Position numbers and translations under genes: made by a program. DNA of 64,000 nt from an uncultured Gammaproteobacteria bacterium (GTDB taxonomy: Bacteria > Patescibacteriota > Microgenomatia > UBA8517): NCBI GenBank assembly GCA_964599625.1, contig CAZRGC010000001.1:179388-243387 (forward strand), given 5' to 3'. Below the pieces are notes generated by a model. That model made no database searches and was not told the origin of the DNA. It saw only the letters and a program-made list of their open reading frames with translations. Position 1 is the stretch's first letter; the number at the start of each line of letters is the position of its first letter. Below, in pieces: positions 3,969-54,184 of this stretch.

Positions 3969-3984
3969 ATTCAGGAGGAAGAAA

Positions 3985-4971
3985 TCACACGCCGTGGCCA
4001 AGTTCTCGTTCACTAATTTTTGAATATATAAAGTTTGGAGACACTACTGCAATCAAACCACCAATGGTTATTACAAAAATGTTAATAAGACCCAAAAAAA
4101 TACCCGGGATTATAAAAAAAGCGTCGGATGGCTTTTCTTTAAAAAGTATTACAGCATTTGTAAACAACCTATAAAGCTTCCAAGGTCCCAGAAAAATTGC
4201 ATTTCCTAACTTTTTGATTAAAGATCGTTTTTCAAAAACTTCCAGGTTGTCTGTAACGCCGAAGTCTGCCATGCGCACAAAATCCGCTCCGTATGCAAGC
4301 ATTCTGTAGAGCCAATCCAAAAAGTTGCCCGGAGGTGCATGATAACCCCTTGTGTGTGGAGCTCTGACAATTTTGAAATTTGATAATTTCAAAATTTTTT
4401 CCCAAAGCGGAATTTTGTTGCGGTAAAGCGGAACTTTGCTGGGTATTGGGTGTTCCAAAAGTTCTGTGCGGTATGCAGCAAAGTTGTTTAAAGGAAAGTA
4501 ATAAGTTTCCTCGGGGGATCTTGTTTTGTCGGATAGAAGCTGAACCATCCATGTCATATTCAGAGAAGCTCTGTAGACGGAATTTGTTTCCAATCTCGTG
4601 TCTCCGGAAACGATGAGTTTTTTGTTTTGATTCTCAAATGGTTTAAGAATGTTTTCCAGCCACTCTTTTTGGTATCTCATGTCCGAATCTGCATAAACAA
4701 TTATTTCACTTCTGGTGACTGCAGCTCCAAGCATTTTTGATTCAGTGTACTCCAGAGTTTTATCTGTTTTTGCGATTTTGATAAATTTGTATTTGTTTTT
4801 TAAGTAATCTTGAACCTTTTGTGACACATGACTGCCAACTATTATGTACAGCCCGTCTGATTTTTCAGGAGAAAGAGTTTGTTTGGCCAGAGAATCGAGA
4901 CTGGCTTCCAAGTCATCCATTTCGGCCATCCCTAAATTTTCCGTTTCCAAAACAACTGAAAATGTTTTCAT
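3985..4971 (-). CDS. GT2 glycosyltransferase with a C-terminal transmembrane anchor, possibly a GtrB/ArnC/Ppm1-like polyprenol-phosphate glycosyltransferase.
   Basis: It has an N-terminal GT-A fold ('LYIIVGS', 'ADSDM' DxD) and a ~30-aa hydrophobic C-terminus ('FFIIPGIFLGLINIFVITIGGLIAVV'). Its size (328 aa) matches GtrB-type enzymes. Confidence 0.6.
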   Translation of the reverse strand: MKTFSVVLETENLGMAEMDDLEASLDSLAKQTLSPEKSDGLYIIVGSHVSQKVQDYLKNKYKFIKIAKTDKTLEYTESKMLGAAVTRSEIIVYADSDMRYQKEWLENILKPFENQNKKLIVSGDTRLETNSVYRASLNMTWMVQLLSDKTRSPEETYYFPLNNFAAYRTELLEHPIPSKVPLYRNKIPLWEKILKLSNFKIVRAPHTRGYHAPPGNFLDWLYRMLAYGADFVRMADFGVTDNLEVFEKRSLIKKLGNAIFLGPWKLYRLFTNAVILFKEKPSDAFFIIPGIFLGLINIFVITIGGLIAVVSPNFIYSKISERELGHGV

Positions 4972-5018
4972 TGTTTAATTATACGATAGATAAACGTCTG
5001 GGGTGATAGAATGATTTT

Positions 5019-11737: not shown

Positions 11738-12744
11738 AAATACTATTCATCAACATATATCAGAATAGTGTAAATAGGGGAGCAGAAACTTTTGTTAAAG
11801 AAATTTCCAAACGAATTACTGGAGATGTTGACATTATTTCTGGAAATGCAAAAGTGTCAAAAAGGTGGCCGCTTTTGTGGCGATTCTTTATCGATCTTAA
11901 TGGGGTTCAGATTGCCTTGTTTACCTTAAGGAATTTACTCAAAATTGCAAAATCCAGATATGATGTGATAATTCCCCTGAATGGTGGTTGGCAGGTAAGG
12001 ATGCTTCGCCTGCTTACATGGATAATAGGCGGCAAGCTTGTGGTTTCGGGGCAGTCGGGTGACGGGTGGGACGATAGGAACAATCTCTGGGCCTTTCCAG
12101 ATGTGTTTGTTGCACTCACGAAAAAATCCGAAAAATGGGCAAAAAAAGTTAATCCTTATATAAATGTAATCTCCATTGGTAACGGTGTTGATATAGAGAT
12201 GTTCAAGCCAAAAGGGGATGTGTATGCTTCCGGTTTGGAGCGACCGGTAATTTTGGCCTCCGGAGCATTTACAAAACAAAAAAGATTGGATTTGACAATA
12301 GAGGCAGTTGCAATGCTTCGAGACGCCAGTCTTCTTATCGCAGGGGCCGACGGCCCCAATAGTAAATTTTTAAGAGAGTTGGGAACAAGTAAGTTAGGCG
12401 ATAGGTTTAAAATGATTTCTGTTTCTTATACTACAATGCCGTCTGTATATAGAAGTGCTGACCTATTCACTTTGGTTTCTGGGTCATCAGAATCTTTCGG
12501 CAATGTTTATGTCGAAGCGATGGCCTCAAACCTACCGATTGTTGCGACAGATGATCCACAAAGGCATGAGGTGGTTGGAGAGGCGGGTTTGTTTGTGAAT
12601 CCTGAAGATGTTGACGCATATAGCAATATGTTGAGAACCGCTCTAAAGCGAAAGTGGGCCAACATACCTATTAATGCTTCCAAAAAATATTCATGGGATG
12701 AGGTTGCAAAAAAGTACGAAGGGCTTTTTAGTGATTTAATATGA
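11734..12744 (+). CDS. GT4 (GT-B) glycosyltransferase.
   Basis: It has the C-terminal 'ESFGNVYVEAMASNLPIVATDDP' EX7E-type motif. Confidence 0.75.
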   Translation: MKILFINIYQNSVNRGAETFVKEISKRITGDVDIISGNAKVSKRWPLLWRFFIDLNGVQIALFTLRNLLKIAKSRYDVIIPLNGGWQVRMLRLLTWIIGGKLVVSGQSGDGWDDRNNLWAFPDVFVALTKKSEKWAKKVNPYINVISIGNGVDIEMFKPKGDVYASGLERPVILASGAFTKQKRLDLTIEAVAMLRDASLLIAGADGPNSKFLRELGTSKLGDRFKMISVSYTTMPSVYRSADLFTLVSGSSESFGNVYVEAMASNLPIVATDDPQRHEVVGEAGLFVNPEDVDAYSNMLRTALKRKWANIPINASKKYSWDEVAKKYEGLFSDLI

Positions 12745-13577
12745 AATTATCTGTTGTTATTCCGTCATTTAATGACAAAGCTGATTTGGAAAAATGCCTT
12801 GAGTCTTTGGGCTCTCAGACTATACGCGATTTCGAGATCATTGTTGTTGACGACGGCTCAACTGATGGCACGAGCAATATGCTATCCGGTCTTACTAAAG
12901 TAATATCCAACTTCCAATTTATTCAGGCATCACATGTTGGGGCGGGTGGTGCACGAAATCTGGGTGCCCAAAAAGCAAAGGGGGACATTTTGGTTTTTGT
13001 AGACTCAGACATGACCTTTGACCGGTTTTTTTTGGAAAAACTTGTTCGCCCTATTACAGCAGGTGAAAAAGGAACCTTTAGTAAAGAAGAGTTTGTGTCA
13101 AACTGGGAAAATGTTTGGTCCAGGTGTTGGAATATTAACGAGGGTTGGGAAGAAAAAAGACGCCACCCCAAACATTATCCCGATTCACAGCCTGTGTTTC
13201 GGGCTATCCTCAAAAGTGAATTTGACAGAGTTGGCGGTTTTACTCCCGGGGGGTACGATGACGATTGGAGTTTGAGCAAAAAGTTGGGCTATCTTGCCAA
13301 ATCTGCCCCTGGAGCAATTTTTTATCACAAAAACCCATCCAGACTTTCGGAGATTTTTAAACATGCAAAATGGGTAGCAAAAAGAAAATATAAGTTTGGG
13401 GGATTTGGTTTGTTTATCTCACTTTTCAGGTCCTCTTTCCCTGTATCGCTGCTTGTGGGTGTCTATAAATCAGTTCTGTCCGGAGTTTTTGAATATATTG
13501 TGTTCAAGATAGTTTACGACGCCGGTATATTTTTCGGCATACTGGAATTTATAGTTACGAAAAAAGGTTATAAATAA
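12741..13577 (+). CDS. GT2 glycosyltransferase, a candidate polyprenol-phosphate sugar synthase paired with the downstream GT-C enzyme.
   Basis: It has 'LSVVIPSFNDKADLEKCLESL...EIIVVDDGSTDGT' and a 'VDSDM' DxD. It directly precedes a GT-C gene with a 2-nt gap. Confidence 0.8.
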   Translation: MKLSVVIPSFNDKADLEKCLESLGSQTIRDFEIIVVDDGSTDGTSNMLSGLTKVISNFQFIQASHVGAGGARNLGAQKAKGDILVFVDSDMTFDRFFLEKLVRPITAGEKGTFSKEEFVSNWENVWSRCWNINEGWEEKRRHPKHYPDSQPVFRAILKSEFDRVGGFTPGGYDDDWSLSKKLGYLAKSAPGAIFYHKNPSRLSEIFKHAKWVAKRKYKFGGFGLFISLFRSSFPVSLLVGVYKSVLSGVFEYIVFKIVYDAGIFFGILEFIVTKKGYK

Positions 13578-16029: not shown

Positions 16030-17147
16030 TTATTGGAATTGATGGGAACGAGGCAAATGTGGCGAATAGAGTAGGTATCAATGTTTACGGCTTCGAGCTC
16101 CTGCGGTCCATGCACCGACTACAGGAGGAATGGGAAAATGATGTTGAGCTCATAGTTTATCTTAAGAATACCCCCGTTTTTGACATGCCGAAAGAAACGC
16201 AAAAATTCAAATATAAAGTTATCCGGGGTGGTGGGAACTGGATTATGCAAAAACTCATACCTGATTTGTTTCTGTCATCACCAAGGCCTGATATTTTTTT
16301 CTCACCCAGCCACTATGTGCCACTCTTGTCACCGATACCCGTTGTTTGTTCTATTATGGACCTTGGTTATCTCGAATTTTCGGGGCAATTCAGAAAAAAA
16401 GACTTTTGGCAGTTAAGGTTGTGGAGTGCTAGCAGCATATATATATCAAAAGCAATCATTGCTATATCAAACAGTACAAAGTCAGACATTGTACGACACT
16501 ATCCCAGTTCAAAAAACAAAATATATACTACCCCGCTGGGCTACGACAAAAGTAGATTTAATAAACAAATTTCATCAAATGATGTGCGACGTGTAAAGAA
16601 AAAATACTCCATAGTTGATGACTATGTGTTATACATTGGCACCCTCAAGCCAAGTAAAAATATTAAGACTGTTGTGGAAGCCATTGGTCAAATCAAAGAT
16701 GTAAAACTTGTAGTTGCTGGCAAGAAGGGATGGTTGTTCCAAGATATATACGACAAGGTAAAAGAACTTAGTTTGGAGAAAAGAGTGATTTTCACAGATT
16801 TTGTCACAGAAGAGGACAAGCCGGCACTAATTAAGGGGGCAAAATTATTGGTGCTGGCTTCTTTCTGGGAGGGTTTCGGCTTGGATGTGCTAAACGCAAT
16901 GGCCTGCGGTGTCCCTGTGGTTGTTTCGGATCGCGGTTCTCTTCCTGAAGTGGTTGGTGGTGCTGGCATATTGGTTGATCCAACCGACACAAACAGCATC
17001 CGGGAGGGAATAGAAAAAGTACTTTTTATGTCTAGTGAGAGTTATAATGATTTATCAGAAAGAGTAGTTTCGCGCGCTAACACTTTTTCCTGGGACGATA
17101 CCGCAAAGAAAACACTTGAAGTACTAAAAAAATATGCTAAAAGATAA
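16026..17147 (+). CDS. GT4 glycosyltransferase, a tandem paralogue of the previous gene.
   Basis: It has 'FWEGFGLDVLNAMACGVPVVVSDRGSLPEVVG'. I chose the start at ATG 16026 (ATGA overlap with the upstream stop), not the longer ORF-track start at 15966. Confidence 0.8.
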   Translation: MIIGIDGNEANVANRVGINVYGFELLRSMHRLQEEWENDVELIVYLKNTPVFDMPKETQKFKYKVIRGGGNWIMQKLIPDLFLSSPRPDIFFSPSHYVPLLSPIPVVCSIMDLGYLEFSGQFRKKDFWQLRLWSASSIYISKAIIAISNSTKSDIVRHYPSSKNKIYTTPLGYDKSRFNKQISSNDVRRVKKKYSIVDDYVLYIGTLKPSKNIKTVVEAIGQIKDVKLVVAGKKGWLFQDIYDKVKELSLEKRVIFTDFVTEEDKPALIKGAKLLVLASFWEGFGLDVLNAMACGVPVVVSDRGSLPEVVGGAGILVDPTDTNSIREGIEKVLFMSSESYNDLSERVVSRANTFSWDDTAKKTLEVLKKYAKR

Positions 17148-17730
17148 AACAGGAAAAATTCTCACTCCGAGGGAGATCTTGTCAAAGGTAATTGTAAGGT
17201 TTTACAACTATATTTTGGATTTGGAGCTAATGGTTCTGAGAACTGTTGGCAGTATTCCCTCACACTCGTTAAGAAAGATGTTTTACAGGCTGGCGGGTGT
17301 AAAAATAGGTAAAGGATCATCTTTACATATGTGGGCAAATTTTTTTGAGCCCTCAAACATATCAATCGGCGAAGATTCAATCATTGGTGACCATGTTTTT
17401 CTTGACGGGCGAGACACTTTATCAATAGGAAGTCATGTGGATATTGCTTCTTATGTAATGATTTATAATTCCGAGCATGATGTTGAAAGCCCCGGATTTT
17501 CGGCAGTTTTGGGAAAGGTAGAGATAAAAGACTATGTTTTTGTCGGCCCAAGGGCCATTATTTTACCGGGTGTGGTTGTGGGCAAGGGTGCCGTTGTGGC
17601 TGCCGGTGCCGTTGTAACAAAAGATGTGCCTGATTTTGCTATTGTCGGCGGTGTTCCTGCTAAAGTAATTTCGGAAAGGAAAAATAAAAATCTCCGTTAC
17701 AAGTTGGGCCGGGCTCGTCTTTTTCAGTAA
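17134..17730 (+). CDS. Hexapeptide-repeat (left-handed beta-helix) acetyltransferase, probably a sugar O-acetyltransferase.
   Basis: It has imperfect hexapeptide repeats ('IGEDSIIGDHVFLDG...IGSHVDIASYVMIYN...VGPRAIILPGVVVGKGAVVAAGAVV'). Confidence 0.8.
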   Translation: MLKDKTGKILTPREILSKVIVRFYNYILDLELMVLRTVGSIPSHSLRKMFYRLAGVKIGKGSSLHMWANFFEPSNISIGEDSIIGDHVFLDGRDTLSIGSHVDIASYVMIYNSEHDVESPGFSAVLGKVEIKDYVFVGPRAIILPGVVVGKGAVVAAGAVVTKDVPDFAIVGGVPAKVISERKNKNLRYKLGRARLFQ

Positions 17731-26375: not shown

Positions 26376-27494
26376 ATGAATGAAGGAGATTTTCAGAAAC
26401 ATATATACGCCTTAGTGCTTGCGGGCGGTGGCGGTACTAGGCTTTGGCCTGTCAGCAGAAACGAAACACCAAAGCAATTTCTTAAATTGTTCAAAGACCA
26501 GACTCTTACGCAGATTACAATTCAACGTTTAAGAAAAATAATCCCATTGGAACGGATTTTTGTCGTCACGGTATCCGATGAATATAAAGAAGAAATAAAA
26601 AAGGAAATTCCGGAACTTGTTGATGAAAATATCATTGTGGAACCTGTCAGAAGGGAAACAGGGCCTGCATATGCATTAGGAGCACTTCACATCTACGAAA
26701 AGGACAACGACGCCGTGATTATAACCGAGGCTGCAGATAGACTAGTAAGACCAATTCCTTTATACCTGGAGACACTTTTAGCTGCTGCAAAGGTTGCATA
26801 TGATAAACGAATAATGGTTGCGATGGGAATAGAGCCCAGATATCCACATCCCGGTTTGGGACATATCAAAAAAGGTGACAAAGCAGAAAGTGTGGACGGT
26901 GTGGAATTTTACAAACTCGCAGATTTTGTCGAGAAACCTCCAATAGAAGTGGCAAAGGAGTACACAGAGTCGGGCCAGTATCTTTGGAATGCTGGTCAAT
27001 ATGTATGGAGGGCTGACACACTTCTTGATTCCTATAAGCAAAACGCTCCGGATATTTATGCAATTCTTGAAGAAATAAGGCCACATGTTTTTCATCAGGA
27101 TGAGCAGGAACTTCTTAAGGCGGAGTATGAAAAAATGCCTTCAATAGCAGTTGACTACGCCATTTCCGAAAAGGACAAAAATTTCATGGTGGCAGCAGCT
27201 GACTTTTACTGGACAGATATTGGTGATTGGAAAGAAGTTTGGGGAAATTTACCCAAGGACTCGGGAGGAAATGTCGTTATTTCTGGTAGCGGCAAAGACA
27301 CCGAGGTTATAAATATTGATTCTACAGACTCATTAATCCACACTGACGGAAGATTGATCGCCATTGTTGATGTAGACAACATAGTTGTAGTGGACACAAA
27401 AGACGCCCTTCTTATAACTACCAAGAGTCGGGCGCAAAGTGTCAAAAAGGTAGTCGAGAGATTAAAAGAAGAAAACAAAGTGGAACTACTTTGA
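26376..27494 (+). CDS. manC: Mannose-1-phosphate guanylyltransferase (GDP-mannose pyrophosphorylase).
   Basis: It has the nucleotidyltransferase motif 'LVLAGGGGTRLWPVSRNETPKQFL' and its length is typical of a GMP domain alone. Confidence 0.8.
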   Translation: MNEGDFQKHIYALVLAGGGGTRLWPVSRNETPKQFLKLFKDQTLTQITIQRLRKIIPLERIFVVTVSDEYKEEIKKEIPELVDENIIVEPVRRETGPAYALGALHIYEKDNDAVIITEAADRLVRPIPLYLETLLAAAKVAYDKRIMVAMGIEPRYPHPGLGHIKKGDKAESVDGVEFYKLADFVEKPPIEVAKEYTESGQYLWNAGQYVWRADTLLDSYKQNAPDIYAILEEIRPHVFHQDEQELLKAEYEKMPSIAVDYAISEKDKNFMVAAADFYWTDIGDWKEVWGNLPKDSGGNVVISGSGKDTEVINIDSTDSLIHTDGRLIAIVDVDNIVVVDTKDALLITTKSRAQSVKKVVERLKEENKVELL

Positions 27495-42829: not shown

Positions 42830-44086
42830 ATGACTAAGTTTCTCGTGACCGGTGGGAGAAAACTGGAAGGTGAAGTCAGCCTTTCGGGAAACAAAAACGC
42901 GGCACTCAAGCTGATACCTGCAGCGCTTGTTGCAGATACAAAATCTACATTTACAAATGTGCCGGACATTTCAGATGTTTCGGTAATGGTGGACCTCATC
43001 AGGAAACTGGGTGTAACAATTGAATATTCCGACCACACACTTACAATTGACCCCTCTACAATTACTTCTTATGATTTGGACCCAGATTTATCATCTAAAT
43101 TCAGAGCATCTGTTGTTTTGGCTGCACCACTTTTGGTTAAGTTTGGTAAGGCCATAGTCACCCCGCCGGGTGGCGACCAGATCGGTGACAGACTTTTGGA
43201 TACACATTTTTCAATGATGCAAAAAATGGGTGTCGCTATGCAAAGGAAAGACGGAAGATTCTTCTTGGAGTGGAAAGAAAGGAAAGCAACTTCAATTTTT
43301 CTTGAAGAGGCGTCTGTTACGGCAACAGAAATGGGTCTAATGATGGCCTCCTCACTGGAAAACGAAACCATAATTGATGATGCAGCCACAGAACCGCACG
43401 TAATCGAACTCTCAAACTATTTGAACAAAATGGGTGCAAATATTTCTGGGGGAGGTACAAACAGAATCAGAATCTCCGGAGGAAAACTTAGAGGTGCAGA
43501 ACACCGTGTGGGTGCAGACCACATTGAAGGCGGAACTTTCGCGATTGCGTCTGCCATAACCGGAGGGACTATAAAAATAAACGACTTCGAGCCGGACAGT
43601 TATCACATGATTCTTAAATATCTTGGAGACATGGGGATAAATTACCGTACCGAGAAAAACTCACTGGTTGTTTTGCCTTCAAAACTAAAGTCCAACAGGA
43701 GAAAGTTTCAAACAAGGCCTTGGCCGGGATTTCCAACTGATCTTATGAGCCCTTTTATTGTTTTGGCAACTCAAACCGAGGGTACCGTGCTTTGTCATGA
43801 TTGGATGTACGAATGGAGAATGTTTTTTGTTGACGACCTTATCTCAATGGGTGCAAATATTTTTATTGCTGACCCACATCGGGTTATTGTGAGCGGACCA
43901 ACCAGGCTCATGAGCGACAGACTGTTTTGTAAAGATATAAGGGCTGGTATATCTGTTGTCTTGGCAGCGATGGTTGCTGACGGTAGAAGTACTATTGAAA
44001 ACGTAGAAGTGGTTCAGCGAGGTTACGAAAACATAGATCAAAGATTTCGCGCTCTTGGCGCCGAAATAGTCAAAAAGGACGAATGA
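42830..44086 (+). CDS. murA: UDP-N-acetylglucosamine 1-carboxyvinyltransferase.
   Basis: It starts 'FLVTGGRKLEGEVSLSGNKNAALKLIPAAL' and has a two-domain EPT fold. Confidence 0.9.
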   Translation: MTKFLVTGGRKLEGEVSLSGNKNAALKLIPAALVADTKSTFTNVPDISDVSVMVDLIRKLGVTIEYSDHTLTIDPSTITSYDLDPDLSSKFRASVVLAAPLLVKFGKAIVTPPGGDQIGDRLLDTHFSMMQKMGVAMQRKDGRFFLEWKERKATSIFLEEASVTATEMGLMMASSLENETIIDDAATEPHVIELSNYLNKMGANISGGGTNRIRISGGKLRGAEHRVGADHIEGGTFAIASAITGGTIKINDFEPDSYHMILKYLGDMGINYRTEKNSLVVLPSKLKSNRRKFQTRPWPGFPTDLMSPFIVLATQTEGTVLCHDWMYEWRMFFVDDLISMGANIFIADPHRVIVSGPTRLMSDRLFCKDIRAGISVVLAAMVADGRSTIENVEVVQRGYENIDQRFRALGAEIVKKDE

Positions 44087-45090
44087 CAAAATACAAACAC
44101 AACCAGAAAGTTGTCACTTTTGGTGGTAAAACAGGACACTTCCAACTTTTGAACGGTCTAAAAAAAATCAACGATCCCTCTAAAATAACTGCAGTAGTGG
44201 GGACGTGGGATAGCGGAGGTAGTAGTGGTGTATTGCGAAGCGAACTTGGTGTTTTACCCCCAGGTGATATAAGAGCGTGTCTTTTGGCGCTTATGGAAGA
44301 CGATGAACAGCAAAAGGTGGCGCAAAGGTTGTTTGATGACAGACTGCAAGAAGCAACTGGGCCACTTAAGGGTCATTCTTTGGGAAACTTAATTGGTGTG
44401 CGGCTGGATCACATCTTTCATGGTCAAGACAGGGGAACCGATGCAGAACGTGCTCTGTTTAGAATCCGAGGTGAAGTTTTACCAGCTACAATGACCGACT
44501 TGAATTTGGTAGGGGTTACCAAAAGGGGAATAGAAATTGACGGTGAAACCAATATCGACAACCGGAGTCAGCGCCAAGACTTCAACCCGGAAGACCGGAT
44601 TATGCGAATATATTTCGGAACACATGCCGAAAGTAATCCGCGTGTTCTTGCGGCTATAAAAAATGCGGATAAAATAGTTTTTGCTCCCGGAGATCTTTAT
44701 ACAAGCGTCCTCCCTCATTTGTTGATTGATGGTGTCGCAGAAGCAATACAGAAATCAAAAGCTAAGGTTTATTTTGTTTTAAATTTAACCACCAAAAAGG
44801 GAGAGACTGATTACTTTAAAGCGTCTGATTATGTTAAAGCCTTGGTTTATTATTTGGGAGACAGCGGAAGGTTGAATTACGTTGTGGCAGATAAGGGGGG
44901 TCTTAATGCTGATATTGTTTCGGTATACAAAAAAGCAGGTCAGGAAGTGGTTAAAATAGATGAAGATAACTGTTTGAGCGTCGCGCCAAATGCCAAGATT
45001 GTCAAAGAAAAACTTGGGGAATATTTGAAAAAAGCACACTTACTTAGGCACAATTCGGAAAAACTTGCGGCTGCAATAGTGGATAATTAG
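44083..45090 (+). CDS. yvcK: YvcK/GlmR (UPF0052, CofD-like) family protein.
   Basis: It has 'VVTFGGKTGHFQLLNGLKK...ITAVVGTWDSGGSSGVLR'. Confidence 0.8.
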   Translation: MTKYKHNQKVVTFGGKTGHFQLLNGLKKINDPSKITAVVGTWDSGGSSGVLRSELGVLPPGDIRACLLALMEDDEQQKVAQRLFDDRLQEATGPLKGHSLGNLIGVRLDHIFHGQDRGTDAERALFRIRGEVLPATMTDLNLVGVTKRGIEIDGETNIDNRSQRQDFNPEDRIMRIYFGTHAESNPRVLAAIKNADKIVFAPGDLYTSVLPHLLIDGVAEAIQKSKAKVYFVLNLTTKKGETDYFKASDYVKALVYYLGDSGRLNYVVADKGGLNADIVSVYKKAGQEVVKIDEDNCLSVAPNAKIVKEKLGEYLKKAHLLRHNSEKLAAAIVDN

Positions 45091-45098: not shown

Positions 45099-45593
45099 TT
45101 ACAACTTTTTTCTCATATACAAAACCCCATCTGTTTGTTTTTTAGCCTTAAACCCTAGGATTTTGTAGACTTTTTTGGCAACCATGTTTTTTGAATTTAC
45201 AGACAACCAAATGCCTGGAGATTCTGCTTCTCTAAAGCGTGTGGTTGTGGTAAATGATTTTATGGCTTCACTCAAAAATATTTTCGAGTATCCTTTCCCC
45301 CTCCCTGATTTATAGATCCTTATTGCCACGGAAAACCTGTAGTCAGGAAATTCGGGCGTAGTTTTTTCCGAAAACCAGGCTATGCCCAACAAATTATCCG
45401 ATTTGTCTGTAAGGGTGTAAATAATTTTATTTTTTTGCCACCTCTTGAAAGTGGTCTTATTTTTAAAACGTACGGTGTCTCTGGTGAACTTTTTAATCAA
45501 AAGATCTGACTTTGATTCTTGAATTAAGTAGGCAATTTGATTATCAGTTATACCCGGTTTGAATATGGTTTCGGGGTCGTTTTGGGCTTGCAT
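45099..45593 (-). CDS. GNAT family N-acetyltransferase.
   Basis: It has motif A 'IYKSGRGKGYSKIFLSEAI' and is 164 aa. It is the only antisense gene inside the dcw cluster. Confidence 0.6.
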   Translation of the reverse strand: MQAQNDPETIFKPGITDNQIAYLIQESKSDLLIKKFTRDTVRFKNKTTFKRWQKNKIIYTLTDKSDNLLGIAWFSEKTTPEFPDYRFSVAIRIYKSGRGKGYSKIFLSEAIKSFTTTTRFREAESPGIWLSVNSKNMVAKKVYKILGFKAKKQTDGVLYMRKKL

Positions 45594-45612
45594 TTGCTAT
45601 AATATAGCACGA

Positions 45613-47634
45613 ATGTTTACTGACGTTTCTGATTTGTGTCAAAAAATATCTAACTTTTCTGGCTTGACCGAAGATTCAAGGAAGGTAAGAAAGAACTACA
45701 TTTTTGTGGCAGTTAAGGGAAAGACCACCGACGGCCACGCTCACATAGGTGATGCACTAGAAAGGGGTGCCTCACTTGTTATATGTGAACAAAAACCAAA
45801 CACTTTCAATGGTAATTTCTTAAAGGTGGATGATTCACGTGTTGCTTTGTCTCAGGTTGCGGCCGCGTTTTACGGCTACCCTTCGAGGAATTTGAGGATC
45901 GTCGGTGTGACTGGAACAAAAGGAAAAACTACGACTTCCCACATGATTTATCATATTTTGCAGAAAACCGAAGGTAACACCGGACTCATTTCGACCATAG
46001 TTGCCAAAATAGGAGGAAAAGACTTTGGTACAGGGTTTCATGTAACAAGTCCTGATGTAATAACTTTAAATAAATTCCTCAGAGAGATGGTTGATGCTGG
46101 TTGCAAGTATTGTGTGTTGGAAGTTTCTTCCCATGGAATTGATCAAAAACGCATTTCAGGCATAGATTTTGAAGTTGGTGTTGTTACTAATATAGCACCG
46201 GAACATCTGGACTATCATGGAACTTACAAAGAGTATAAGAGGGTCAAAATGAGTTTTGTTAATTCTGCAAAAAACAAAGTAGTAATGCCAAAAGAAACAG
46301 ATATAAATATCTTTCCCGGAAAATTCAATAATCTCGACGCCGAGTCTGCGGTAAATGCTGTTTCGTTTTTGGGAATTGACCGCAAGACCTCACTTGAGGC
46401 ATTGGAAAGTTTCGAATTACCAGAAGGGAGACTCCAGAGGGTGGAAAACAGTTTGGGTATTGATATTTTTATTGATTTTGCACATACACCTGACTCCTTA
46501 GAGGCGGCATTGACATATTTCAAAAGCATAACCTCTGGAAGGTTGATTTCTGTATTTGGGTGCGCTGGTGAGAGAGATGTAAAAAAACGCAGGAAAATGG
46601 GGAGAATTTCTGAAAATATTTCAGATTATTCGATATTTACAGCAGAAGACCCAAGGCGAGAAAATTTAACTGACATTTTTGCACTAATGAAGAAAGATGC
46701 TAAAAATTTTATTTGTATTCCTGAACGTGGGGAAGCGATTGCATATGCATTATCATATGCAAAAAGGGGCGATACGGTTGTTTTTTTGGGAAAGGGTCAT
46801 GAGTCAAGTATGGCATATAAAGGGTTTGAACACCCATGGAGTGATAAAGAAGAAATTAATAACTTTTTATCTCGGGACGAGAGTGTTTCGGCAATTGTTC
46901 TTGCTGCAGGCAGAGGTTCTAGGATGAAGTCTTCTAAACCCAAGATTTTGCATGAAATATGCGGTAGGCCAATGATTTCGTATAGTTTGCAGAATTTAAG
47001 GAGGGCTGGAGTTGGCGAGATAATAGCTGTTGTTTCTTACAGGAAAAATCTGGTGATCAATGCAATTAAGGGTGAAGTGAAAACTGCTTTCCAAAAAAAC
47101 CCTAAGGGCGGAACTGGGGATGCTGCACGCGTTGGTATGAGTAAGGTCTCAGAAAAAGCCAAATCCGTTATGGTTCTTTATGGAGATGATACAGCTTTCT
47201 ATTCACCCGATACAATTTCAAAAGTAATTAAGAACCATCATAGTAACCGAGCTGTGATCACATTCATAACTCTTACAAAAGAAAATCCTTACGGACTTGG
47301 TAGGATTGTTAGGAACAGAAACGGCGACTTGGTAAAAATAGTGGAGGAAAAAGATGCCAACGAAGAAGAGAAGAAGATTTCCGAGGTAAATGATGGTCTG
47401 TATGTTTTTGATAGAAATTGGTTTGAGGAAAACGTTACTAAGATAAACCCCAGCATGGTAACCAGGGAATTGTATATAGTTGATCTTATCAAAATGGCGA
47501 TTGAACAAAATAAGAAGGTTACTGCTTACCGGCTGCCTACCGATATTGAATGGCAAGGTGTAAATACACCAGCAGAGTTGGAAAAGGCAAAAGAAAAAAT
47601 GGAAGAACGTCTCAAGGTTTTTTCTAATGGTTAA
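45613..47634 (+). CDS. murE: Fusion protein: MurE (UDP-MurNAc-L-Ala-D-Glu:diamino acid ligase) followed by the GlmU N-terminal uridyltransferase domain (GlcNAc-1-P uridyltransferase) with no LbH acetyltransferase domain.
   Basis: Residues ~1-430 carry the Mur ligase motifs ('VGVTGTKGKTTTSHMI', 'DFAHTPDSLEAAL'). Residues ~440-674 carry 'AIVLAAGRGSRMKSSKPKILHEICGRPM' and 'VLYGDD', closely matching the GlmU N-terminal domain. Start is at ATG 45613, 54 nt inside the annotated ORF. Confidence 0.8.
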   Translation: MFTDVSDLCQKISNFSGLTEDSRKVRKNYIFVAVKGKTTDGHAHIGDALERGASLVICEQKPNTFNGNFLKVDDSRVALSQVAAAFYGYPSRNLRIVGVTGTKGKTTTSHMIYHILQKTEGNTGLISTIVAKIGGKDFGTGFHVTSPDVITLNKFLREMVDAGCKYCVLEVSSHGIDQKRISGIDFEVGVVTNIAPEHLDYHGTYKEYKRVKMSFVNSAKNKVVMPKETDINIFPGKFNNLDAESAVNAVSFLGIDRKTSLEALESFELPEGRLQRVENSLGIDIFIDFAHTPDSLEAALTYFKSITSGRLISVFGCAGERDVKKRRKMGRISENISDYSIFTAEDPRRENLTDIFALMKKDAKNFICIPERGEAIAYALSYAKRGDTVVFLGKGHESSMAYKGFEHPWSDKEEINNFLSRDESVSAIVLAAGRGSRMKSSKPKILHEICGRPMISYSLQNLRRAGVGEIIAVVSYRKNLVINAIKGEVKTAFQKNPKGGTGDAARVGMSKVSEKAKSVMVLYGDDTAFYSPDTISKVIKNHHSNRAVITFITLTKENPYGLGRIVRNRNGDLVKIVEEKDANEEEKKISEVNDGLYVFDRNWFEENVTKINPSMVTRELYIVDLIKMAIEQNKKVTAYRLPTDIEWQGVNTPAELEKAKEKMEERLKVFSNG

Positions 47635-48901
47635 AATACATTTTATCGGCATTGGAGGAAGCGGAATTTCGGGTATTGCTAAACTCGCAAAACTTTCGGG
47701 GTATGAGGTTGATGGTTGTGACGTTCAAAAAGATACTGCTTACACGCAAAATATTTTTGAGGGACATTCGAAGGATCATGTAGTTGGGGCAGATTTGGTA
47801 GTCACCTCACCTGCATTGTTTTTTTCCGACAAAACTAATCCCGAGATCGAACTTGCCAGAGAGCAAAATAAACTTTTAACATGGCAGGAATTTTTGGGTA
47901 CCTATCTTCAAAAAAATAAGAAAGTTATCTGTGTTGCAGGAACCCATGGTAAATCCACAACAACCGCAATGGCAGCAAAACTCTTGGAAGATAACGGCTT
48001 TGACCCATCGGTGACGATTGGCGCAGTTATTAAAAGTACGGGAAATAATTACAGATTTGGTAAAGGGAAATATTTTGTAACAGAGGCAGACGAGTTTTTT
48101 AATAATTTTTTGAATTATAACCCTGAAGTAATAGTATTAAACAATATAGAGTTTGACCATCCGGATTTTTTTAAATCAAAGGAGGATGTTTACGAAAGTT
48201 TTAGAAAATTTGTTAAGAGGCTTACCGGTGCCAAGGTTCTTATTGCAAATGCAGGTGACCCCGGAGTTTTGGAAATTCTCAAAGATATCGGTAATGACGT
48301 TAAAGTTTTGAGTTACTCAGACGATGACGGTCTGAATATTCCCAATCTCAAAGTCCCCGGAGTGCACAATAAGATGAACGCAAAAGGAATCTTTATGTTG
48401 GGACGTCTTCTAAAGATAGATGACAAAAAAATAGCAGAAAGCTTGGCCGGATTCGAAGGTATCGCACGAAGATTGGAAATCGTGAACGAGGGCGGAAAAT
48501 TTAAAGTTTTTGATGATTACGCACATCACCCCACAGCCATCAAAGAAACTCTTAAGGCTTTAAGATCAATGTTTCCCAAAAATAGAATAATTGCGGTTGA
48601 TGAACCGCATGGTTTTGCCCGGTCTTCAAAGCTTTTGACGGAGTACTCGGGAGTGTTTGATAATGCGGATATTTCATTCATAGGGCCAATATTTAAAGCC
48701 CGCGACACGGAAAGTTTTGGTATGAACCCGGGGGTAGTTGCACAAGCTTCTAAAAACGCAAATGTAAAAGGTTTTAATTCGTTTCCCGAAATATTAGACG
48801 AAGTCAAAAAGATTATTAAAAAAGGAGATGTAGTTTGTGTTATGGGGGCAGGGGACAGTTATAAATGGGCAAGGGAGATATCCAAGATAGATACAAATTA
48901 A
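47627..48901 (+). CDS. murC: UDP-N-acetylmuramate--L-alanine ligase.
   Basis: It has 'IHFIGIGGSGISGIA' and 'VAGTHGKSTTTAM'. Confidence 0.9.
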   Translation: MVKIHFIGIGGSGISGIAKLAKLSGYEVDGCDVQKDTAYTQNIFEGHSKDHVVGADLVVTSPALFFSDKTNPEIELAREQNKLLTWQEFLGTYLQKNKKVICVAGTHGKSTTTAMAAKLLEDNGFDPSVTIGAVIKSTGNNYRFGKGKYFVTEADEFFNNFLNYNPEVIVLNNIEFDHPDFFKSKEDVYESFRKFVKRLTGAKVLIANAGDPGVLEILKDIGNDVKVLSYSDDDGLNIPNLKVPGVHNKMNAKGIFMLGRLLKIDDKKIAESLAGFEGIARRLEIVNEGGKFKVFDDYAHHPTAIKETLKALRSMFPKNRIIAVDEPHGFARSSKLLTEYSGVFDNADISFIGPIFKARDTESFGMNPGVVAQASKNANVKGFNSFPEILDEVKKIIKKGDVVCVMGAGDSYKWAREISKIDTN

Positions 48902-49929
48902 TGAAAACTATACAAGGAAAAAGTTTTAAAGATCTTACAACTTTTGGCATTGGAGGAAAAATAAAACATTATGTTGAGGTTTCATCGGAAGATGAAATTA
49001 GAGATGTTTCTAAATTTGCGAAGGATGAAAAGTTGGATATTTTTGTCTTGGGGGGCGGGAGTGACATTTTGGTTTCTGACAAGGAATTTGACGGATTGGT
49101 TGTGCATTATAAAAAAGCTGACATAAATCTATCGAATGAGAACGGAAAATATTTTTTGAGTGTTTGCTCTGGAGCTATCTGGGACAGTGTTGTGGAATAT
49201 ACAGTTGCAAAAAATCTTCAGGGAATAGAATGTTTGTCGGGAATTCCCGGTTTTTCAGGGGCAGCCCCCATCCAGAATATTGGTGCATATGGCCAGGAGA
49301 TAAAAGATGTATTTGTCTCACTTAAAGCTTATAACTTTGAAGAAGACAAATTCGAGACTTTCGACAAAAACATGTGTGAATTTGGGTATAGGGAAAGTGT
49401 TTTCAAAACAAGCAAATACTGGCAAAAATATTTGATTACAGAAATGACATTGGAGCTCAAGAAAAACTACCCACCGTTTGTGGAATATGAATCATTGAAA
49501 AAATATTTGTCAGAAAAAAGTATAACAACGCCTACATTTGGTGAAGTAAGAGAGGCAGTGCTGCAAATAAGGTCCGGTAAATTTGAAAATCCGCGGGAAA
49601 CGGGAAACGCGGGGTCGTTTTTCAAAAATCCGATCATAGAAAACAGTAAGGCTACCGAGTTAATGGAAAAATTTCCTGATATAAAACTCCGGGAGCTGCC
49701 GGATGGTAAATATAAGTCTTTCGCTGCGTGGTTTGTTGAGAAATCCGGTTGGAAAGGAAAGACCCTGGGAGGTGCGGGGGTGTCGTCGCAGCACGCGCTA
49801 ATTCTCATTAATAAATCGGGATCGGCAAAATCAAGTGATGTTTTTGATTTGTCGGAGGCGATAATTAAAGACGTGTCCGTAAAGTTTGGAATTACTTTGG
49901 AAAGGGAAGTTCAACTTATAAATTTCTAA
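48901..49929 (+). CDS. murB: UDP-N-acetylenolpyruvoylglucosamine reductase.
   Basis: It has an FAD-binding N-terminus 'LTTFGIGGKIKHYV'. The TAATG overlap with murC places the start at ATG 48901, 36 nt inside the annotated ORF. Confidence 0.85.
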   Translation: MKTIQGKSFKDLTTFGIGGKIKHYVEVSSEDEIRDVSKFAKDEKLDIFVLGGGSDILVSDKEFDGLVVHYKKADINLSNENGKYFLSVCSGAIWDSVVEYTVAKNLQGIECLSGIPGFSGAAPIQNIGAYGQEIKDVFVSLKAYNFEEDKFETFDKNMCEFGYRESVFKTSKYWQKYLITEMTLELKKNYPPFVEYESLKKYLSEKSITTPTFGEVREAVLQIRSGKFENPRETGNAGSFFKNPIIENSKATELMEKFPDIKLRELPDGKYKSFAAWFVEKSGWKGKTLGGAGVSSQHALILINKSGSAKSSDVFDLSEAIIKDVSVKFGITLEREVQLINF

Positions 49930-51233
49930 TGAATTACTCAAATAAAAAAATTGCCATTTTAGGTTTTGGTATCGAAGGTAAGGACGCGGCATCTTTTTTG
50001 TTGAGTAAAGGCTCCTTGGTGACAGTGCTTGATAAGAACGAGAATTTGGACAAAGGTGACTTCGAAAGTTTGGGAATAAGATTTATTTTAGGAGATAAAT
50101 ATCTTGAAAGTGATTTGAACGAATTTGACTATATAGTCAGGTCTCCGGGAATATATAGATTTTGTAAAGAAATACTAGAGGCAGAGAGTTTGGGTGTAAA
50201 AGTTACCTCGGCACTACAGATTTTTATGGATGAAACAAAAGCAAAAATAATTGGTGTTACTGGTACAAAAGGCAAGGGTACAACTTCGACACTGATTTAC
50301 GAAATTCTTAAGGAAGTTGGTAATAAAGTATTTTTAGTCGGCAATATTGGCAAGCCTTATTTGGAACTATTGCCAAAACTGGATCCTGACACTTGGGTGG
50401 TTATGGAAATGTCTTCATTTCAGCTTATTGACATCAAAAAATCTCCCAACATTGCGGTGGTACTGAATATTACGTCAGACCACATGGATTGGCACAAAAA
50501 CAACAAAGAATATATTGACGCAAAAAGCAATATTGTAGCTTGGCAAAACAAAGAAGATTACGCGCTTTTGAATTCTGAGTACCAATCGTCAAAGAGTTTC
50601 GCGTCGATGACCACCGCAAAAGTTATATATTTTTCAAAGTCGGAGTTGCCCGAAGAATATAAAGAAAATTTACTTCTAAGAGGCGAACACAACCTTGAAA
50701 ACATTGCGGCAGCAGTTGCCGTATCAAAACTGCTTAACATTAAAAAAGATAAAATATTGCAAACCATACAAAATTTTAAAGGTTTGGAACACCGCCTAGA
50801 ATTGGTTGCGGAAGTGAAGGGTGTTAAGTACTACAACGATTCTTTTGCAACAGGACCTCAACCAACCGTCGCTGCGATCAAGTCGTTTAACGAACCACAA
50901 ACAGTCATATTGGGCGGATCTGATAAGAACTTAAATTTCGATACTCTGGCGGAAGAGATTAAAAACAATGCTTCGGTTAAAAATGTAATACTAATTGGTG
51001 AAACGGCAGCCAAAATTAAACTTGCTTTGGAAAGCGTCAAAGTGAGCGTCAATCTTTTTTCGATGGGTAAGCCAAGTATGTTAGAAATTGTAACAAAAGC
51101 AAAAGAAGTAACACCCGTTGGGGGTGTAGTTGTATTGTCTCCGGCGTGCGCCAGTTTTGATATGTTTAAAAATTACAAAGATAGGGGTAATCAATTCAAA
51201 GAGGCGGTTCTGCTTTTGAATAATGAAAAATAA
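49929..51233 (+). CDS. murD: UDP-N-acetylmuramoylalanine--D-glutamate ligase.
   Basis: It has 'IGVTGTKGKGTTSTLI'. Confidence 0.9.
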   Translation: MNYSNKKIAILGFGIEGKDAASFLLSKGSLVTVLDKNENLDKGDFESLGIRFILGDKYLESDLNEFDYIVRSPGIYRFCKEILEAESLGVKVTSALQIFMDETKAKIIGVTGTKGKGTTSTLIYEILKEVGNKVFLVGNIGKPYLELLPKLDPDTWVVMEMSSFQLIDIKKSPNIAVVLNITSDHMDWHKNNKEYIDAKSNIVAWQNKEDYALLNSEYQSSKSFASMTTAKVIYFSKSELPEEYKENLLLRGEHNLENIAAAVAVSKLLNIKKDKILQTIQNFKGLEHRLELVAEVKGVKYYNDSFATGPQPTVAAIKSFNEPQTVILGGSDKNLNFDTLAEEIKNNASVKNVILIGETAAKIKLALESVKVSVNLFSMGKPSMLEIVTKAKEVTPVGGVVVLSPACASFDMFKNYKDRGNQFKEAVLLLNNEK

Positions 51234-52023: not shown

Positions 52024-53058
52024 ATGAAACAAAAAACACGTGTCGCCGTGATTATGGGAGGCAATTCTTCCGAACATGAAATTTCTTTTCTTTCGGGAAG
52101 CAATGTTATTCAAAGTTTGGACAAAAGTGAATACGAAATCCTTCCTGTGGTGATATCAAAAACAGGAAAGTGGCAACTAACTTCGGCAGAAAGTATCAAA
52201 AAAATCAGCAACCCCATTGACTTTAAAAATACAACAAAAGAGATATCTTTATACAAAAAAAGCGAAATAAAAAATTTCCGCAACTCGCTGTCTGGAAAAG
52301 TCGATGTTGCCTTTATTGCGCTGCATGGAAAAAACGGTGAGGACGGGAGCATCCAGGGTTTTTTTGAAACTTTGGGTGTTAAGTATACCGGCTCTGGCGT
52401 GCTGGCATCGTCCTTGGGTATGGATAAAATTATGTTTCGCAAAATGATGGAGAGGGAAAAAATTCCTGTACCAAAATATATAGTAGTTAAAAAGGGTGAT
52501 AACTTTAAAAAAATAAAAAAACTTCTAAAGCGCCCGCCGTATTTTGTTAAGCCGAGCGACCAGGGTTCCTCAGTAGGGGCATCTGTTGTTAAAAAAGAAA
52601 AAGATTTGGGAAAGAGTCTCAAACTCGCACATCAGTATTCTGACCTGGCACTTGTTGATAAGTTAATAAAAGGCAGGGAAGTCACGTGCGCTATTTTGGG
52701 AGGAATAAAACCAACTGCACTGCCCCTTGTTGAGATTGTTACCAAGAACGAATTCTTTGATTATGACGCAAAGTATTCAGAAGGTGGGGCAGAAGAAATA
52801 GTGCCTGCTCGGGTTGGAAAAAGACTCACTAAGAAAGTCCAAGAGATCTCATTGGCTGTATATAGGGCATTGGGATGCAAAGGATTTGCGAGAGTTGATT
52901 TCATAATAGAAGACAATCAATCCCCGTACGTTTTGGAAATTAATACGATACCGGGTCTTACTGAAATGTCACTTTTACCAAAGGCTGCTAAAGCTTATGG
53001 TATCGAGTACCCCAATCTTATTGGTAGAATAATAGGAAATGCACTCAAAGGATATTAA
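52024..53058 (+). CDS. ddl: D-alanine--D-alanine ligase.
   Basis: It has an ATP-grasp fold, 'ALHGKNGEDGSIQGFFE' and a C-terminal 'EINTIPG'. Confidence 0.9.
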   Translation: MKQKTRVAVIMGGNSSEHEISFLSGSNVIQSLDKSEYEILPVVISKTGKWQLTSAESIKKISNPIDFKNTTKEISLYKKSEIKNFRNSLSGKVDVAFIALHGKNGEDGSIQGFFETLGVKYTGSGVLASSLGMDKIMFRKMMEREKIPVPKYIVVKKGDNFKKIKKLLKRPPYFVKPSDQGSSVGASVVKKEKDLGKSLKLAHQYSDLALVDKLIKGREVTCAILGGIKPTALPLVEIVTKNEFFDYDAKYSEGGAEEIVPARVGKRLTKKVQEISLAVYRALGCKGFARVDFIIEDNQSPYVLEINTIPGLTEMSLLPKAAKAYGIEYPNLIGRIIGNALKGY

Positions 53059-54184
53059 CCCGCTTATATCTTGGTGGATGACTCCCAAGCTTCCATACGA
53101 AGACATATATGAATTACCCCTTTTGAAAAAAAAGGGTTTTTCAAGCAAGGTGGTCCACCTGCTTTCGGGATGGGTTATTCATCCGATAAAAAGACGTTTA
53201 GCCAGATATTATGTGGCTTTCCTACAAAAAAGAGGGCTTACAGTGATAGGAATCACCGGCAGTGCCGGTAAAAGTACGACCGCAAAAATGGTTGGAGATG
53301 TCCTTTCTAAAAAAGCCAAGACGATTGTTACACCTCCAGGGATAGATCCTGTTTACAATATTCCCAACACAATTCTTAAATGTGACGGTGATACAAAGTT
53401 TTTGGTGTTGGAAATGTCCGTCGAGTTTCCTGGGGAAATGGATTATTACTTGTGGTTGGTCAAGCCAGACGCTGCGATTATTACAAATATCTTTGCGTCA
53501 CATTTGGAGTTTTTTAAAGACTTGGATGGTGTTTTGAAAGAAAAAGGAAAACTTCCCAAAGTAATTGATTCCAATAACGTTGTGTTTTTAAACCAAGACG
53601 ATCAGAGGCTGGAAAAATTTGCTGGATCACTTAAGTCTAGGGTAATTTGGTTTAGATCCAAAGGGGACCCTATAGCTGACAACTGGGAGGCAGCAAAAGC
53701 TGTGGGGAATTACTATGGTGTGGAAAAGAAATACCTTTTGAGCGTAAAGAAAAATTTTGCAAACCCCGACCACAGAATGCAGCTAATAAGAAAGGGAAGT
53801 ATTACTATTTTAGATGATACTTACAATAGCAATCCTTCTGCTGCAATCGCAGTAGTTAAACATTTTGCCAAACTTTCTAAGGGTTTTAGAATTGTAGTCC
53901 TTGGAGACATGCTTCAGATGGGGGTGTATGACCAAGAAGCTCATAAAGTTGTGGGAAAAGAAGTTGCCAGATATAAATTTGATGTTTTTGTAGGAGTGGG
54001 AAAGTCTTCGGAGCTTACTGCCAAAATAGTAAAGATGCACTCAAGGGGAACCAAGGTGATTTGGGCAAAAAATTGCGAAGAAGCCATACCGGTTGTAAGA
54101 AATATGCTCAAACCTGGAAGTTATGTTTTGGTTAAAGGTTCTCGCTCTATCGGTTTAGATAAACTTGTCGACGCAATCTCCTGA
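53039..54184 (+). CDS. murF: UDP-N-acetylmuramoyl-tripeptide--D-alanyl-D-alanine ligase.
   Basis: It has 'IGITGSAGKSTTAKM'. An alternative start lies at 53078. Confidence 0.85.
   Translation: MHSKDINPLISWWMTPKLPYEDIYELPLLKKKGFSSKVVHLLSGWVIHPIKRRLARYYVAFLQKRGLTVIGITGSAGKSTTAKMVGDVLSKKAKTIVTPPGIDPVYNIPNTILKCDGDTKFLVLEMSVEFPGEMDYYLWLVKPDAAIITNIFASHLEFFKDLDGVLKEKGKLPKVIDSNNVVFLNQDDQRLEKFAGSLKSRVIWFRSKGDPIADNWEAAKAVGNYYGVEKKYLLSVKKNFANPDHRMQLIRKGSITILDDTYNSNPSAAIAVVKHFAKLSKGFRIVVLGDMLQMGVYDQEAHKVVGKEVARYKFDVFVGVGKSSELTAKIVKMHSRGTKVIWAKNCEEAIPVVRNMLKPGSYVLVKGSRSIGLDKLVDAIS

Follow-up and report, generated by a model that had tools for sequence, protein, structure and literature searches.

Identification of the murE–glmU-N fusion gene

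We analyzed a 64,000-nucleotide (nt) stretch of DNA (contig CAZRGC010000001.1 of assembly GCA_964599625.1, positions 179,388 to 243,387), referred to below, at its full length, as the window. It contains a gene, designated here murE–glmU-N, whose product is most probably a bifunctional enzyme, in which the Mur ligase MurE is joined without a linker to the uridyltransferase domain of GlmU (GlmU-N), while acetylation takes place in trans. The component enzymes are known, the fused architecture is undescribed, and a full-text search of the literature found no description of a MurE–GlmU-N fusion. The gene and its modules, defined by continuity of the open reading frame (ORF), Pfam and NCBIfam domains, and recurrence in assemblies and homologues, are as follows:

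45613-47634, plus strand: murE–glmU-N fusion gene, 673 amino acids (aa) plus stop codon
45613-46875, plus strand: MurE module (aa 1-421) with the Mur ligase N, M and C domains (TIGR01085, NF001126)
46876-47631, plus strand: GlmU-type N-acetylglucosamine-1-phosphate (GlcNAc-1-P) uridyltransferase module (aa 422-673), which terminates with the arm helix; the left-handed beta-helix (LbH) domain is absent

According to the ORF list and the translation, the frame that opens at 45559 (TTG) or 45613 (ATG) runs to 47634 on the plus strand with no in-frame stop codon. The single uninterrupted ORF proposed in the preliminary description (674 aa there; 673 aa plus a stop codon by this translation) is thus confirmed. 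Comparison with related loci (numbered with the prefix L, and drawn in part from among the matches listed in profile searches of genome and metagenome contigs) supports the ATG at 45613 as the start: the homologues begin at the equivalent Met, 19-21 nt past a conserved spacer (the N-terminus of the L087 homologue is MFKNVSDLCQKI). The start codon of the following gene, murC (47627), overlaps the stop codon of the fusion by 8 nt.

Pfam searches with the fusion protein detected Mur_ligase, Mur_ligase_M and Mur_ligase_C (aa 16-395), followed by NTP_transferase (aa 427-665). The MurE module exceeds the NCBIfam cut-offs of both TIGR01085 (413 bits; cut-off 257) and the equivalog NF001126 (406 bits; cut-off 373). 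It contains the P-loop GVTGTKGKTTTS (aa 98-109; nt 45904-45939), invariant in the homologues, as well as the motif DFAHTPDSL (aa 288-296; nt 46474-46500). The proposal that the MurE part is complete therefore holds, and all of the motifs originally quoted are present.

The C-terminal 244 aa matched eleven bacterial GlmU models with scores of 127-209 bits (the top two being 209 and 203 bits), and only positions about 2-241 of the approximately 450 positions of these models were covered. Competing models scored much lower on this domain: archaeal GlmU 98, rmlA_long 62, RfbA 37, GalU 36 and MurU 36 bits. These scores exclude its identification as RmlA or MurU, and answer the earlier concern that it might be a generic sugar-1-phosphate nucleotidyltransferase. 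The best PDB matches of the second domain are all bifunctional GlmU proteins (residues about 4-253). A hexapeptide/LbH region was sought past the uridyltransferase domain of the fusion and none was found, with no match beyond model position about 241. With the whole protein as a query, the GlmU scores (205 and 212 bits) were below the cut-offs (367 and 450 bits; TIGR01173 and NF010934), because half of each model is unmatched. Judged by these matches, the fusion is not a GlmU equivalog, and carries the GlmU-type N domain only.

In the AlphaFold2 (AF2) model of the fusion (pLDDT 86.5, pTM 0.82), the terminal helix of MurE (aa 411-419) directly abuts strand 1 of the GlmU-N fold (aa 422-432). The "short linker" of the preliminary description is thus practically nil. 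The protein ends in a long helix (aa 653-672), which matches the arm of GlmU. In GlmU this arm helix normally leads into the LbH domain (domain limits according to PMC10087520). The view that the C-terminal part represents GlmU deprived of its LbH domain is borne out by both the model coverage and this terminal helix.

Active-site residues of both modules

The uridyltransferase module contains three motifs that could be aligned with GlmU of Streptococcus pneumoniae:

46900-46953, plus strand: uridyltransferase signature LAAGRGSRMKSSKPKILH (aa 430-447), with the Gly-rich nucleotide-binding loop, Arg and Lys; aligns with GlmU L8-H25
47176-47190, plus strand: LYGDD (aa 522-526); its second Asp aligns with GlmU D102
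47554-47568, plus strand: QGVNT; its Asn aligns with GlmU N227

R15 and K22 of the S. pneumoniae enzyme are kept in the signature. Together with the counterparts of Q72, G77/T78, D102 and N227, and the Glu and Asn of the sugar pocket, they are conserved, being invariant in 24 fusion homologues. The same applies to G433, G435, R437, M438, P443 and K444 of the signature, D525 and D526 of LYGDD, and G649 and N651 near the C-terminus. In GlmU structures, D102 is the Mg2+-binding Asp and N227 the second Mg2+ ligand. The loop (GRGSRM) has Ser in place of the usual Thr.

In MurE enzymes, the DNPR motif specifies meso-diaminopimelate (meso-DAP). The corresponding sequence of the fusion is EDPR (aa 345-348; nt 46645-46656), with E345, D346 and R348 unchanged throughout the fusion clade. 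The third residue of the stem peptide may be other than meso-DAP.

As judged from the conserved residues, one conserved polypeptide combines an intact MurE with the active site, likewise intact, of a GlmU-type uridyltransferase, and we infer that both enzyme activities are retained. The N-terminal 421 residues would add the third, diamino-acid residue to UDP-MurNAc-L-Ala-D-Glu with the use of ATP, and the C-terminal 250 residues would convert GlcNAc-1-P and UTP into UDP-GlcNAc and pyrophosphate. Substrate channelling is not the rationale for this arrangement, because MurA, MurB, MurC and MurD act between the synthesis of UDP-GlcNAc and the MurE step. Plausible benefits would be (i) expression at a fixed 1:1 ratio, (ii) a place for the uridyltransferase in a Mur enzyme assembly and (iii) stabilization of GlmU-N without the LbH trimer scaffold; as regards the last of these, short GlmU-N domains are joined to many different partners (see below).

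Occurrence of the fusion

The identical 673-aa product is encoded, with the same neighbouring genes, on contigs of four separate sequencing runs (SRR31638238, SRR29708228, SRR30503396 and SRR29708229). A homologue search with the fusion protein gave 4411 database hits. Mur-ligase and NTP_transferase domains were both detected by Pfam in every one of the best 120 clusters (55-72% identity; 630-693 aa), so that the MurE–GlmU-N architecture is shared by at least 120 distinct homologue clusters. The junction region, HPWSD...SAI.LAAG, is conserved. In some relatives (L008) murE and glmU-N are adjacent, overlapping genes, and this is the one observation in favour of an artefact of assembly or gene calling that merged two neighbours. 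Such an artefact is practically out of the question, given the continuous frame, the recovery of the same protein from independent runs the presence of a single shared ORF in so many divergent clusters and the conserved junction region. The continuity of the junction assumed in the preliminary description is thus established, and the architecture recurs in relatives.

The record names within the fusion clusters include Candidatus Woesebacteria, Candidatus Curtissbacteria and "Patescibacteria group", and on the basis of these names the fusion clade is assigned to the Microgenomates group. The fusion, with dcw gene synteny of the Microgenomates type, was also observed in records of metagenome-assembled genomes labelled as uncultured Gammaproteobacteria (L001; CAZWNZ010000002.1) and Alphaproteobacteria (P0083). 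Since the synteny is the same and the MurA, YvcK and fusion proteins are 56-74% identical, these labels are unreliable and probably wrong. In public databases the fusion proteins are named "Mur ligase family protein" or "NTP transferase domain-containing protein".

Candidate acetyltransferase encoded divergently from the fusion

In canonical GlmU, glucosamine-1-phosphate (GlcN-1-P) is acetylated by the LbH trimer. The LbH domain is truly absent from the fusion protein, and the separate acetylation of glucosamine (GlcN) proposed in the preliminary description is therefore reasonable, with an adjoining GNAT gene as the candidate and a stand-alone LbH protein as its rival. The N domain of GlmU is active alone and does not need trimerization (PMC10087520). 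Uridyltransferase-only GlmU is not peculiar to the fusion, since in many Patescibacteria it is commonly encoded as a separate, stand-alone protein. The candidate gene and the DNA separating it from the fusion are:

45099-45593, minus strand: 164-aa GNAT acetyltransferase, in divergent orientation to the fusion; candidate substitute for the GlmU acetyltransferase
45594-45612: divergent spacer TTGCTATAATATAGCACGA, 19 nt; conserved palindrome between the start codons of the GNAT gene and the fusion

The product of the former has a GNAT fold and an R/Q-x-x-G-x-G/A acetyl-CoA loop. Its structural model (pLDDT 93) resembles generic GNATs (PAT-like, RimI/J, SpeG, AAC(6') and PseH). The orthologues are 36-47% identical, and the family comprises 46 clusters, including Woesebacteria and Shapirobacteria. 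Of 11 distinct fusion loci, 8 have a divergent GNAT gene directly upstream of the fusion (the window, L085, L087, L088, L089, L091, L171 and L173). In two of these, L085 (a complete 1.08-Mb Woesebacteria genome) and L088, the order is murA - yvcK - glmS - GNAT (opposite strand) - murE–glmU-N.

The spacer is of 19-21 nt and nearly identical in L085, L087, L088, L091, L171 and L173, while the proteins are merely about 40-60% identical. In L085 and L087 its sequence is TTGGTATAATATACCACGA. The spacer is palindromic (TTGGTATAATATACCAC; GGTATA-A-TATACC), and the window has the compensated form GCTATA-A-TATAGC. Whichever strand is read, it resembles an extended -10 element of the TGnTATAAT type, located 7-10 nt from each ATG. 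A simple promoter scan over the spacer called no promoter, because a -35 element is absent. We infer from the conserved palindrome that the spacer serves as a shared bidirectional promoter or operator, and divergent transcripts starting from it would probably be leaderless.

Several fusions link the GNAT domain to a HAD domain and to GlmU-N. The GNAT of L171 forms the C-terminal domain of a 404-aa HAD–GNAT protein, and the 228-aa GNAT forms of L089, L173 and L091 retain a remnant of HAD. Protein P0161 (626 aa) has the architecture GlmU-N–HAD–GNAT, and its last 157 residues match the window GNAT (32% identity, E = 4e-22). A search for further proteins of this architecture gave P0161 only, plus three GlmU-N–HAD proteins (P0317-P0319); GlmU-N–HAD was also found in L107. 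HAD genes are located beside the archaeal-type glmU in L002 and L006, and in the latter HAD is fused to MurC (HAD–MurC, 648 aa; 3422-5368). A search for the subfamily of the associated HAD domain gave no assignment, the only matches being weak and HAD-IA-like.

Acetylation of the glucosamine phosphate would thus take place in trans, with the divergent GNAT as the best candidate. The pathway would run from GlmS through the GNAT (N-acetylation of GlcN-6-P, GlcN-1-P or UDP-GlcN) and a mutase to GlmU-N. That this GNAT supplies the missing acetylation is a tentative assignment, to which we give somewhat less than an even chance. The broader scenario is, if anything, slightly more speculative: an unrelated GNAT may have replaced the LbH half in the Microgenomates lineage, where it would be co-regulated with murE–glmU-N through the shared palindromic promoter, in some genomes alongside a HAD-family domain that possibly serves as the phospho-sugar mutase or phosphatase.

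Another gene was noted in L100 (10759-13281), directly downstream of a stand-alone glmU-N and before murC. It encodes an 840-aa protein with an N-terminal AMP-binding (adenylate-forming) domain, plus about 250 aa at the C-terminus with no Pfam match. By its position, it is another candidate for acyl or acetyl transfer.

Evidence for alternative interpretations

A number of observations weigh against the bifunctional enzyme as interpreted above, or against the role ascribed to the GNAT. The whole-protein GlmU scores fall below the equivalog cut-offs, and the EDPR of the MurE module, compared with the DNPR of DAP-type enzymes, keeps the Arg with the Asn replaced, which leaves the amino-acid specificity uncertain. 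No GNAT was found within 10 kb of the fusion in 3 of the 11 loci (L001, L086 and L172), and the GNAT shows no specific likeness, in sequence or structure, to eukaryotic GNA1. P0161 is a singleton encoded on a 5.6-kb contig with no informative context. The searches covered 64 kb of the source genome and, in relatives, some 10 kb to each side; an LbH acetyltransferase, glmS or glmM may be located beyond the window. Finally, YvcK/GlmR of Firmicutes binds UDP-GlcNAc and has been reported as a GlmS activator or an accessory GlcNAc-1-P uridyltransferase (PMC10128056). In view of the reported uridyltransferase activity, the locus, which contains yvcK, may be partly redundant.

The most serious competitor of the GNAT, and one only a little less probable, is a stand-alone LbH trimer similar to the C-terminal half of GlmU (GlmU-C), encoded elsewhere in the genome; GlmU would then be split and the GNAT unrelated. 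Such proteins do exist in related bacteria: the 209-aa LbH gene of L098 overlaps the end of glmU-N, its product matching the acetyltransferase half of archaeal GlmU (137 bits), and a 221-aa LbH gene lies upstream of mraZ in L008. The lack of the GNAT beside the fusion in three loci and its generic fold also fit a split GlmU. However, GlmU-C-like LbH or archaeal-type bifunctional GlmU was found only in Patescibacteria loci that do not carry the fusion (L098, L008, L002 and L006). A tblastn search of the window and the 11 fusion loci revealed no such LbH; in the 64-kb window this search also yielded no glmS, PGM-type mutase, APH-type kinase, NagB or HAD. Moreover, a split GlmU leaves unexplained the conserved GNAT pairing, the shared spacer, and the GlmU-N–HAD–GNAT and HAD–GNAT fusions.

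It is less probable still that GlcNAc is salvaged from the host or the environment (via a kinase and a mutase, or an anomeric kinase), which would make an acetyltransferase unnecessary. Patescibacteria have reduced biosynthesis, a GlmU-N–APH kinase fusion exists (P0155), and the window contains neither glmS nor glmM. On the other hand, in L085 and L088 glmS is a direct neighbour of the GNAT and the fusion, and in L012, L098 and L100 it is close to the stand-alone glmU-N. Because glmS adjoins these genes, GlcN-6-P is made de novo in close relatives and needs to be acetylated. A shift in the specificity of the C-terminal domain, to GlcN-1-P (with UDP-GlcN acetylated later) or to MurNAc-1-P (MurU-like recycling), appears the most doubtful of these readings. 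GlmU is able to uridylylate before acetylation, with greatly reduced parameters (PMC10087520), PseH-type GNATs use UDP-amino sugars as acetyl acceptors and a Foldseek search with the GNAT gave PseH as one of its hits, and the Ser of GRGSRM departs from the usual residue. Against this stand the difference between the GlmU and MurU scores (209 vs 36 bits), the conservation of the GlcNAc-pocket and metal-ligand residues, and the presence of murA and murB, from which de novo synthesis of UDP-MurNAc from UDP-GlcNAc is expected. The MurE–GlmU-N enzyme with acetylation in trans, the GNAT being its best candidate partner, is thus the interpretation that we prefer.

Genetic neighbourhood of the fusion

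The fusion is located within a complete dcw cluster, whose genes were identified partly by Pfam and partly from the ORF list. Their order in the window is mraZ - rsmH - ftsL - penicillin-binding protein gene - murA - yvcK - GNAT (opposite strand) - murE–glmU-N - murC - murB - murD - murI - ddl - murF - mraY - ftsW - murG - ftsQ - ftsA - ftsZ. The genes closest to the fusion are:

42830-44086, plus strand: murA (EPSP_synthase family, 221 bits), for the first committed step that uses UDP-GlcNAc; keeps its place upstream of the fusion in every fusion locus
44083-45090, plus strand: yvcK/glmR (TIGR01826, 235.5 bits; cut-off 196)
47627-48901, plus strand: murC (Mur ligase N, M and C domains)
48865-49929, plus strand: murB (FAD_binding_4 and MurB_C); 37-nt overlap with murC (48865-48901)
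49929-51233, plus strand: murD (MurD-like_N, Mur_ligase M and C domains)

The murF gene of the window (53039-54184) encodes a short protein of 381 aa. Its match to the murF model starts no earlier than position about 67, with a score (224.5 bits) below the cut-off (288.6 bits), and the usual N-terminal domain is apparently missing.

Positions 1-30300 are taken up by a large gene cluster, apparently for surface polysaccharides or glycosylation, which includes genes for an AsnB-like amidotransferase (6296-8155, minus strand) and a mannose-1-phosphate guanylyltransferase (26376-27494). An LbH ORF at 17134-17730 was considered as a substitute for GlmU-C and rejected, since it is WcaF/WbbJ-like, of the O-acetyltransferase type, and located in a glycosyltransferase cluster.

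Two further observations concern the mur genes of other fusion-bearing loci. L086 carries a gene for a MurL-type epimerase (PF26299/PF26298; 14132-15388), which replaces the glutamate racemase gene murI in the mur cluster. In L085 a 354-aa gene with weak alpha/beta-hydrolase Pfam hits (12036-13100) is located between the fusion and murC–murB.

Stand-alone GlmU-N and the origin of the fusion

An exhaustive search with the GlmU-N domain identified 15510 representatives at E <= 0.001, of which 702 reached E <= 1e-30. Clustered at 50%, the 150 nearest of them were divided by length:

225-285 aa (stand-alone N domain): 86 of 150
286-365 aa: 21 of 150
431-515 aa (canonical GlmU size): 24 of 150
over 515 aa (other fusions): 11 of 150

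Some of the loci came from two contig searches. Among the matches listed, most of the 80 loci from the genome contigs contained an ordinary murE (those useful here being L001, L002, L006, L008, L010 and L012), and the GlmU-N search of metagenome contigs gave many canonical glmU genes (useful: L091, L094, L097, L098, L100, L107 and L118).

Stand-alone glmU-N genes (245-260 aa) are common in Patescibacteria, where they are placed between murE and murC. In L008 (Candidatus Woykebacteria) murE (428 aa) runs 4 bp into glmU-N (247 aa), murC being the next gene, and in L094 the order is murE, glmU-N (254 aa), murC. The Collierbacteria-like loci L012 and L100 have the order murE - glmS - (nagB-like) - yvcK - glmU-N. 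A recurring 269-aa stand-alone GlmU-N (37% identity to the window domain) was observed in human-gut metagenome contigs of up to 1.0 Mb (L111-L123 and L140); on this evidence the short GlmU-N is also present in gut-associated organisms.

GlmU-N is also joined to other partners:

P0131 and P0142: GlmU-N–MurC
P0266 (950 aa): PGM–GlmU-N (PGM/PMM mutase)
P0161: GlmU-N–HAD (Pfam detects NTP_transferase and HAD only)
P0155: GlmU-N–APH-family kinase
P0162: GlmU-N–SDR (short-chain dehydrogenase)

Of these, the GlmU-N–APH protein is possibly a sugar-1-kinase salvage module.

In a neighbour-joining tree of the domain, constructed without support values, the window sequence groups in a single clade with eleven other MurE–GlmU-N proteins (eight reference homologues and three 50% representatives). 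Another five MurE–GlmU-N proteins, which are more divergent, are interspersed among stand-alone forms. This pattern suggests recurrent MurE–GlmU-N fusion. In the simplest history, the stop/start overlap of adjacent murE and glmU-N genes would have been lost, and a monophyletic Microgenomates clade would then have kept the fusion.

Other dcw enzymes are fused as well. MurC–MurB fusions (727-743 aa) were found in L085 (13097-15289), L086 (11947-14130), L088 (1786-3975), L171 (7084-9315) and L172 (6989-9190), and a triple MurC–MurB–MurD fusion (1169 aa) in L173 (7006-10515). The fusion clade seems unusually prone to the joining of dcw enzymes.

Comparison with known systems

In bacteria, the synthesis of UDP-GlcNAc through bifunctional GlmU is regarded as nearly universal and as a target for drugs. 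The N domain of the bifunctional enzymes of Escherichia coli, S. pneumoniae and Bacillus subtilis is homologous to that of the fusion (model positions 2-241, with the Gly-rich loop, Arg and Lys, Mg2+ ligands, sugar pocket and start of the arm helix). In contrast to these enzymes, the fusion lacks the LbH domain and trimer scaffold, and its uridyltransferase domain is attached to the C-terminus of MurE. An archaeal-type bifunctional enzyme (TIGR03992; 411-416 aa) occupies the same slot in the close Microgenomates loci L002 (after murE) and L006 (after yvcK), but the window domain scores only 98 bits with this model, compared with 209 bits with bacterial GlmU, and has no LbH. The locus reveals a large uncultivated lineage with a dismantled GlmU: the acetyltransferase half has disappeared, and the uridyltransferase half is carried by MurE or, in relatives, by MurC, a mutase, HAD or a kinase.

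If the GNAT acetylates GlcN-6-P, the pathway would follow the logic of the eukaryotic hexosamine pathway (GFAT, GNA1, AGM1, UAP1), in which acetylation precedes the mutase and the uridyltransferase acts last. It would differ in that the GNAT is not GNA1-like and the uridyltransferase is GlmU-type, not UAP1- or NagU-type. N-terminal-only GlmU has been described by Fong et al. 2026 (bioRxiv 10.64898/2026.06.23.733835), e.g. in Polystyrenella longa, with an "unidentified acetyltransferase" implied; the preprint mentions neither Patescibacteria nor fusions. Their GlmU-N is a stand-alone protein of NagU-bearing bacteria, whereas that of the window is fused to MurE in Patescibacteria and has a linked candidate acetyltransferase. 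The 164-aa GNAT is thus a specific candidate for the acetylation step left unassigned in that preprint. If this role is true, it would represent a previously unrecognized bacterial route to UDP-GlcNAc, and a GNAT candidate for bacteria that have only the N-terminal half of GlmU. The locus also affects the reconstruction of pathways in Patescibacteria genomes, in which the fusion proteins carry generic names.

Comprising two cell-wall-precursor enzymes on one conserved polypeptide that recurs across genomes, the fusion belongs with the Mur chimeras. A survey of these (PMC10214165), from which unidentified species were excluded, lists MurE-MurF, MurC-Ddl, MurC-MurB, MurG-MurC, MurD-FtsW and MraY-MurG, and does not mention GlmU. 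The partners in MurG-MurC and MurC-Ddl do not catalyze consecutive steps, and stoichiometric expression and complex assembly have been proposed (PMC10214165). Like these chimeras, MurE–GlmU-N joins dcw neighbours, head-to-tail and without a linker as in MurE-MurF of Bordetella pertussis. It differs from them in that the partner is a nucleotide-sugar enzyme of the UDP-GlcNAc pathway, and not a Mur, Ddl or Fts protein. It therefore adds a new class to the Mur chimeras, and extends the argument that the order and fusions of dcw genes reflect enzyme assemblies.

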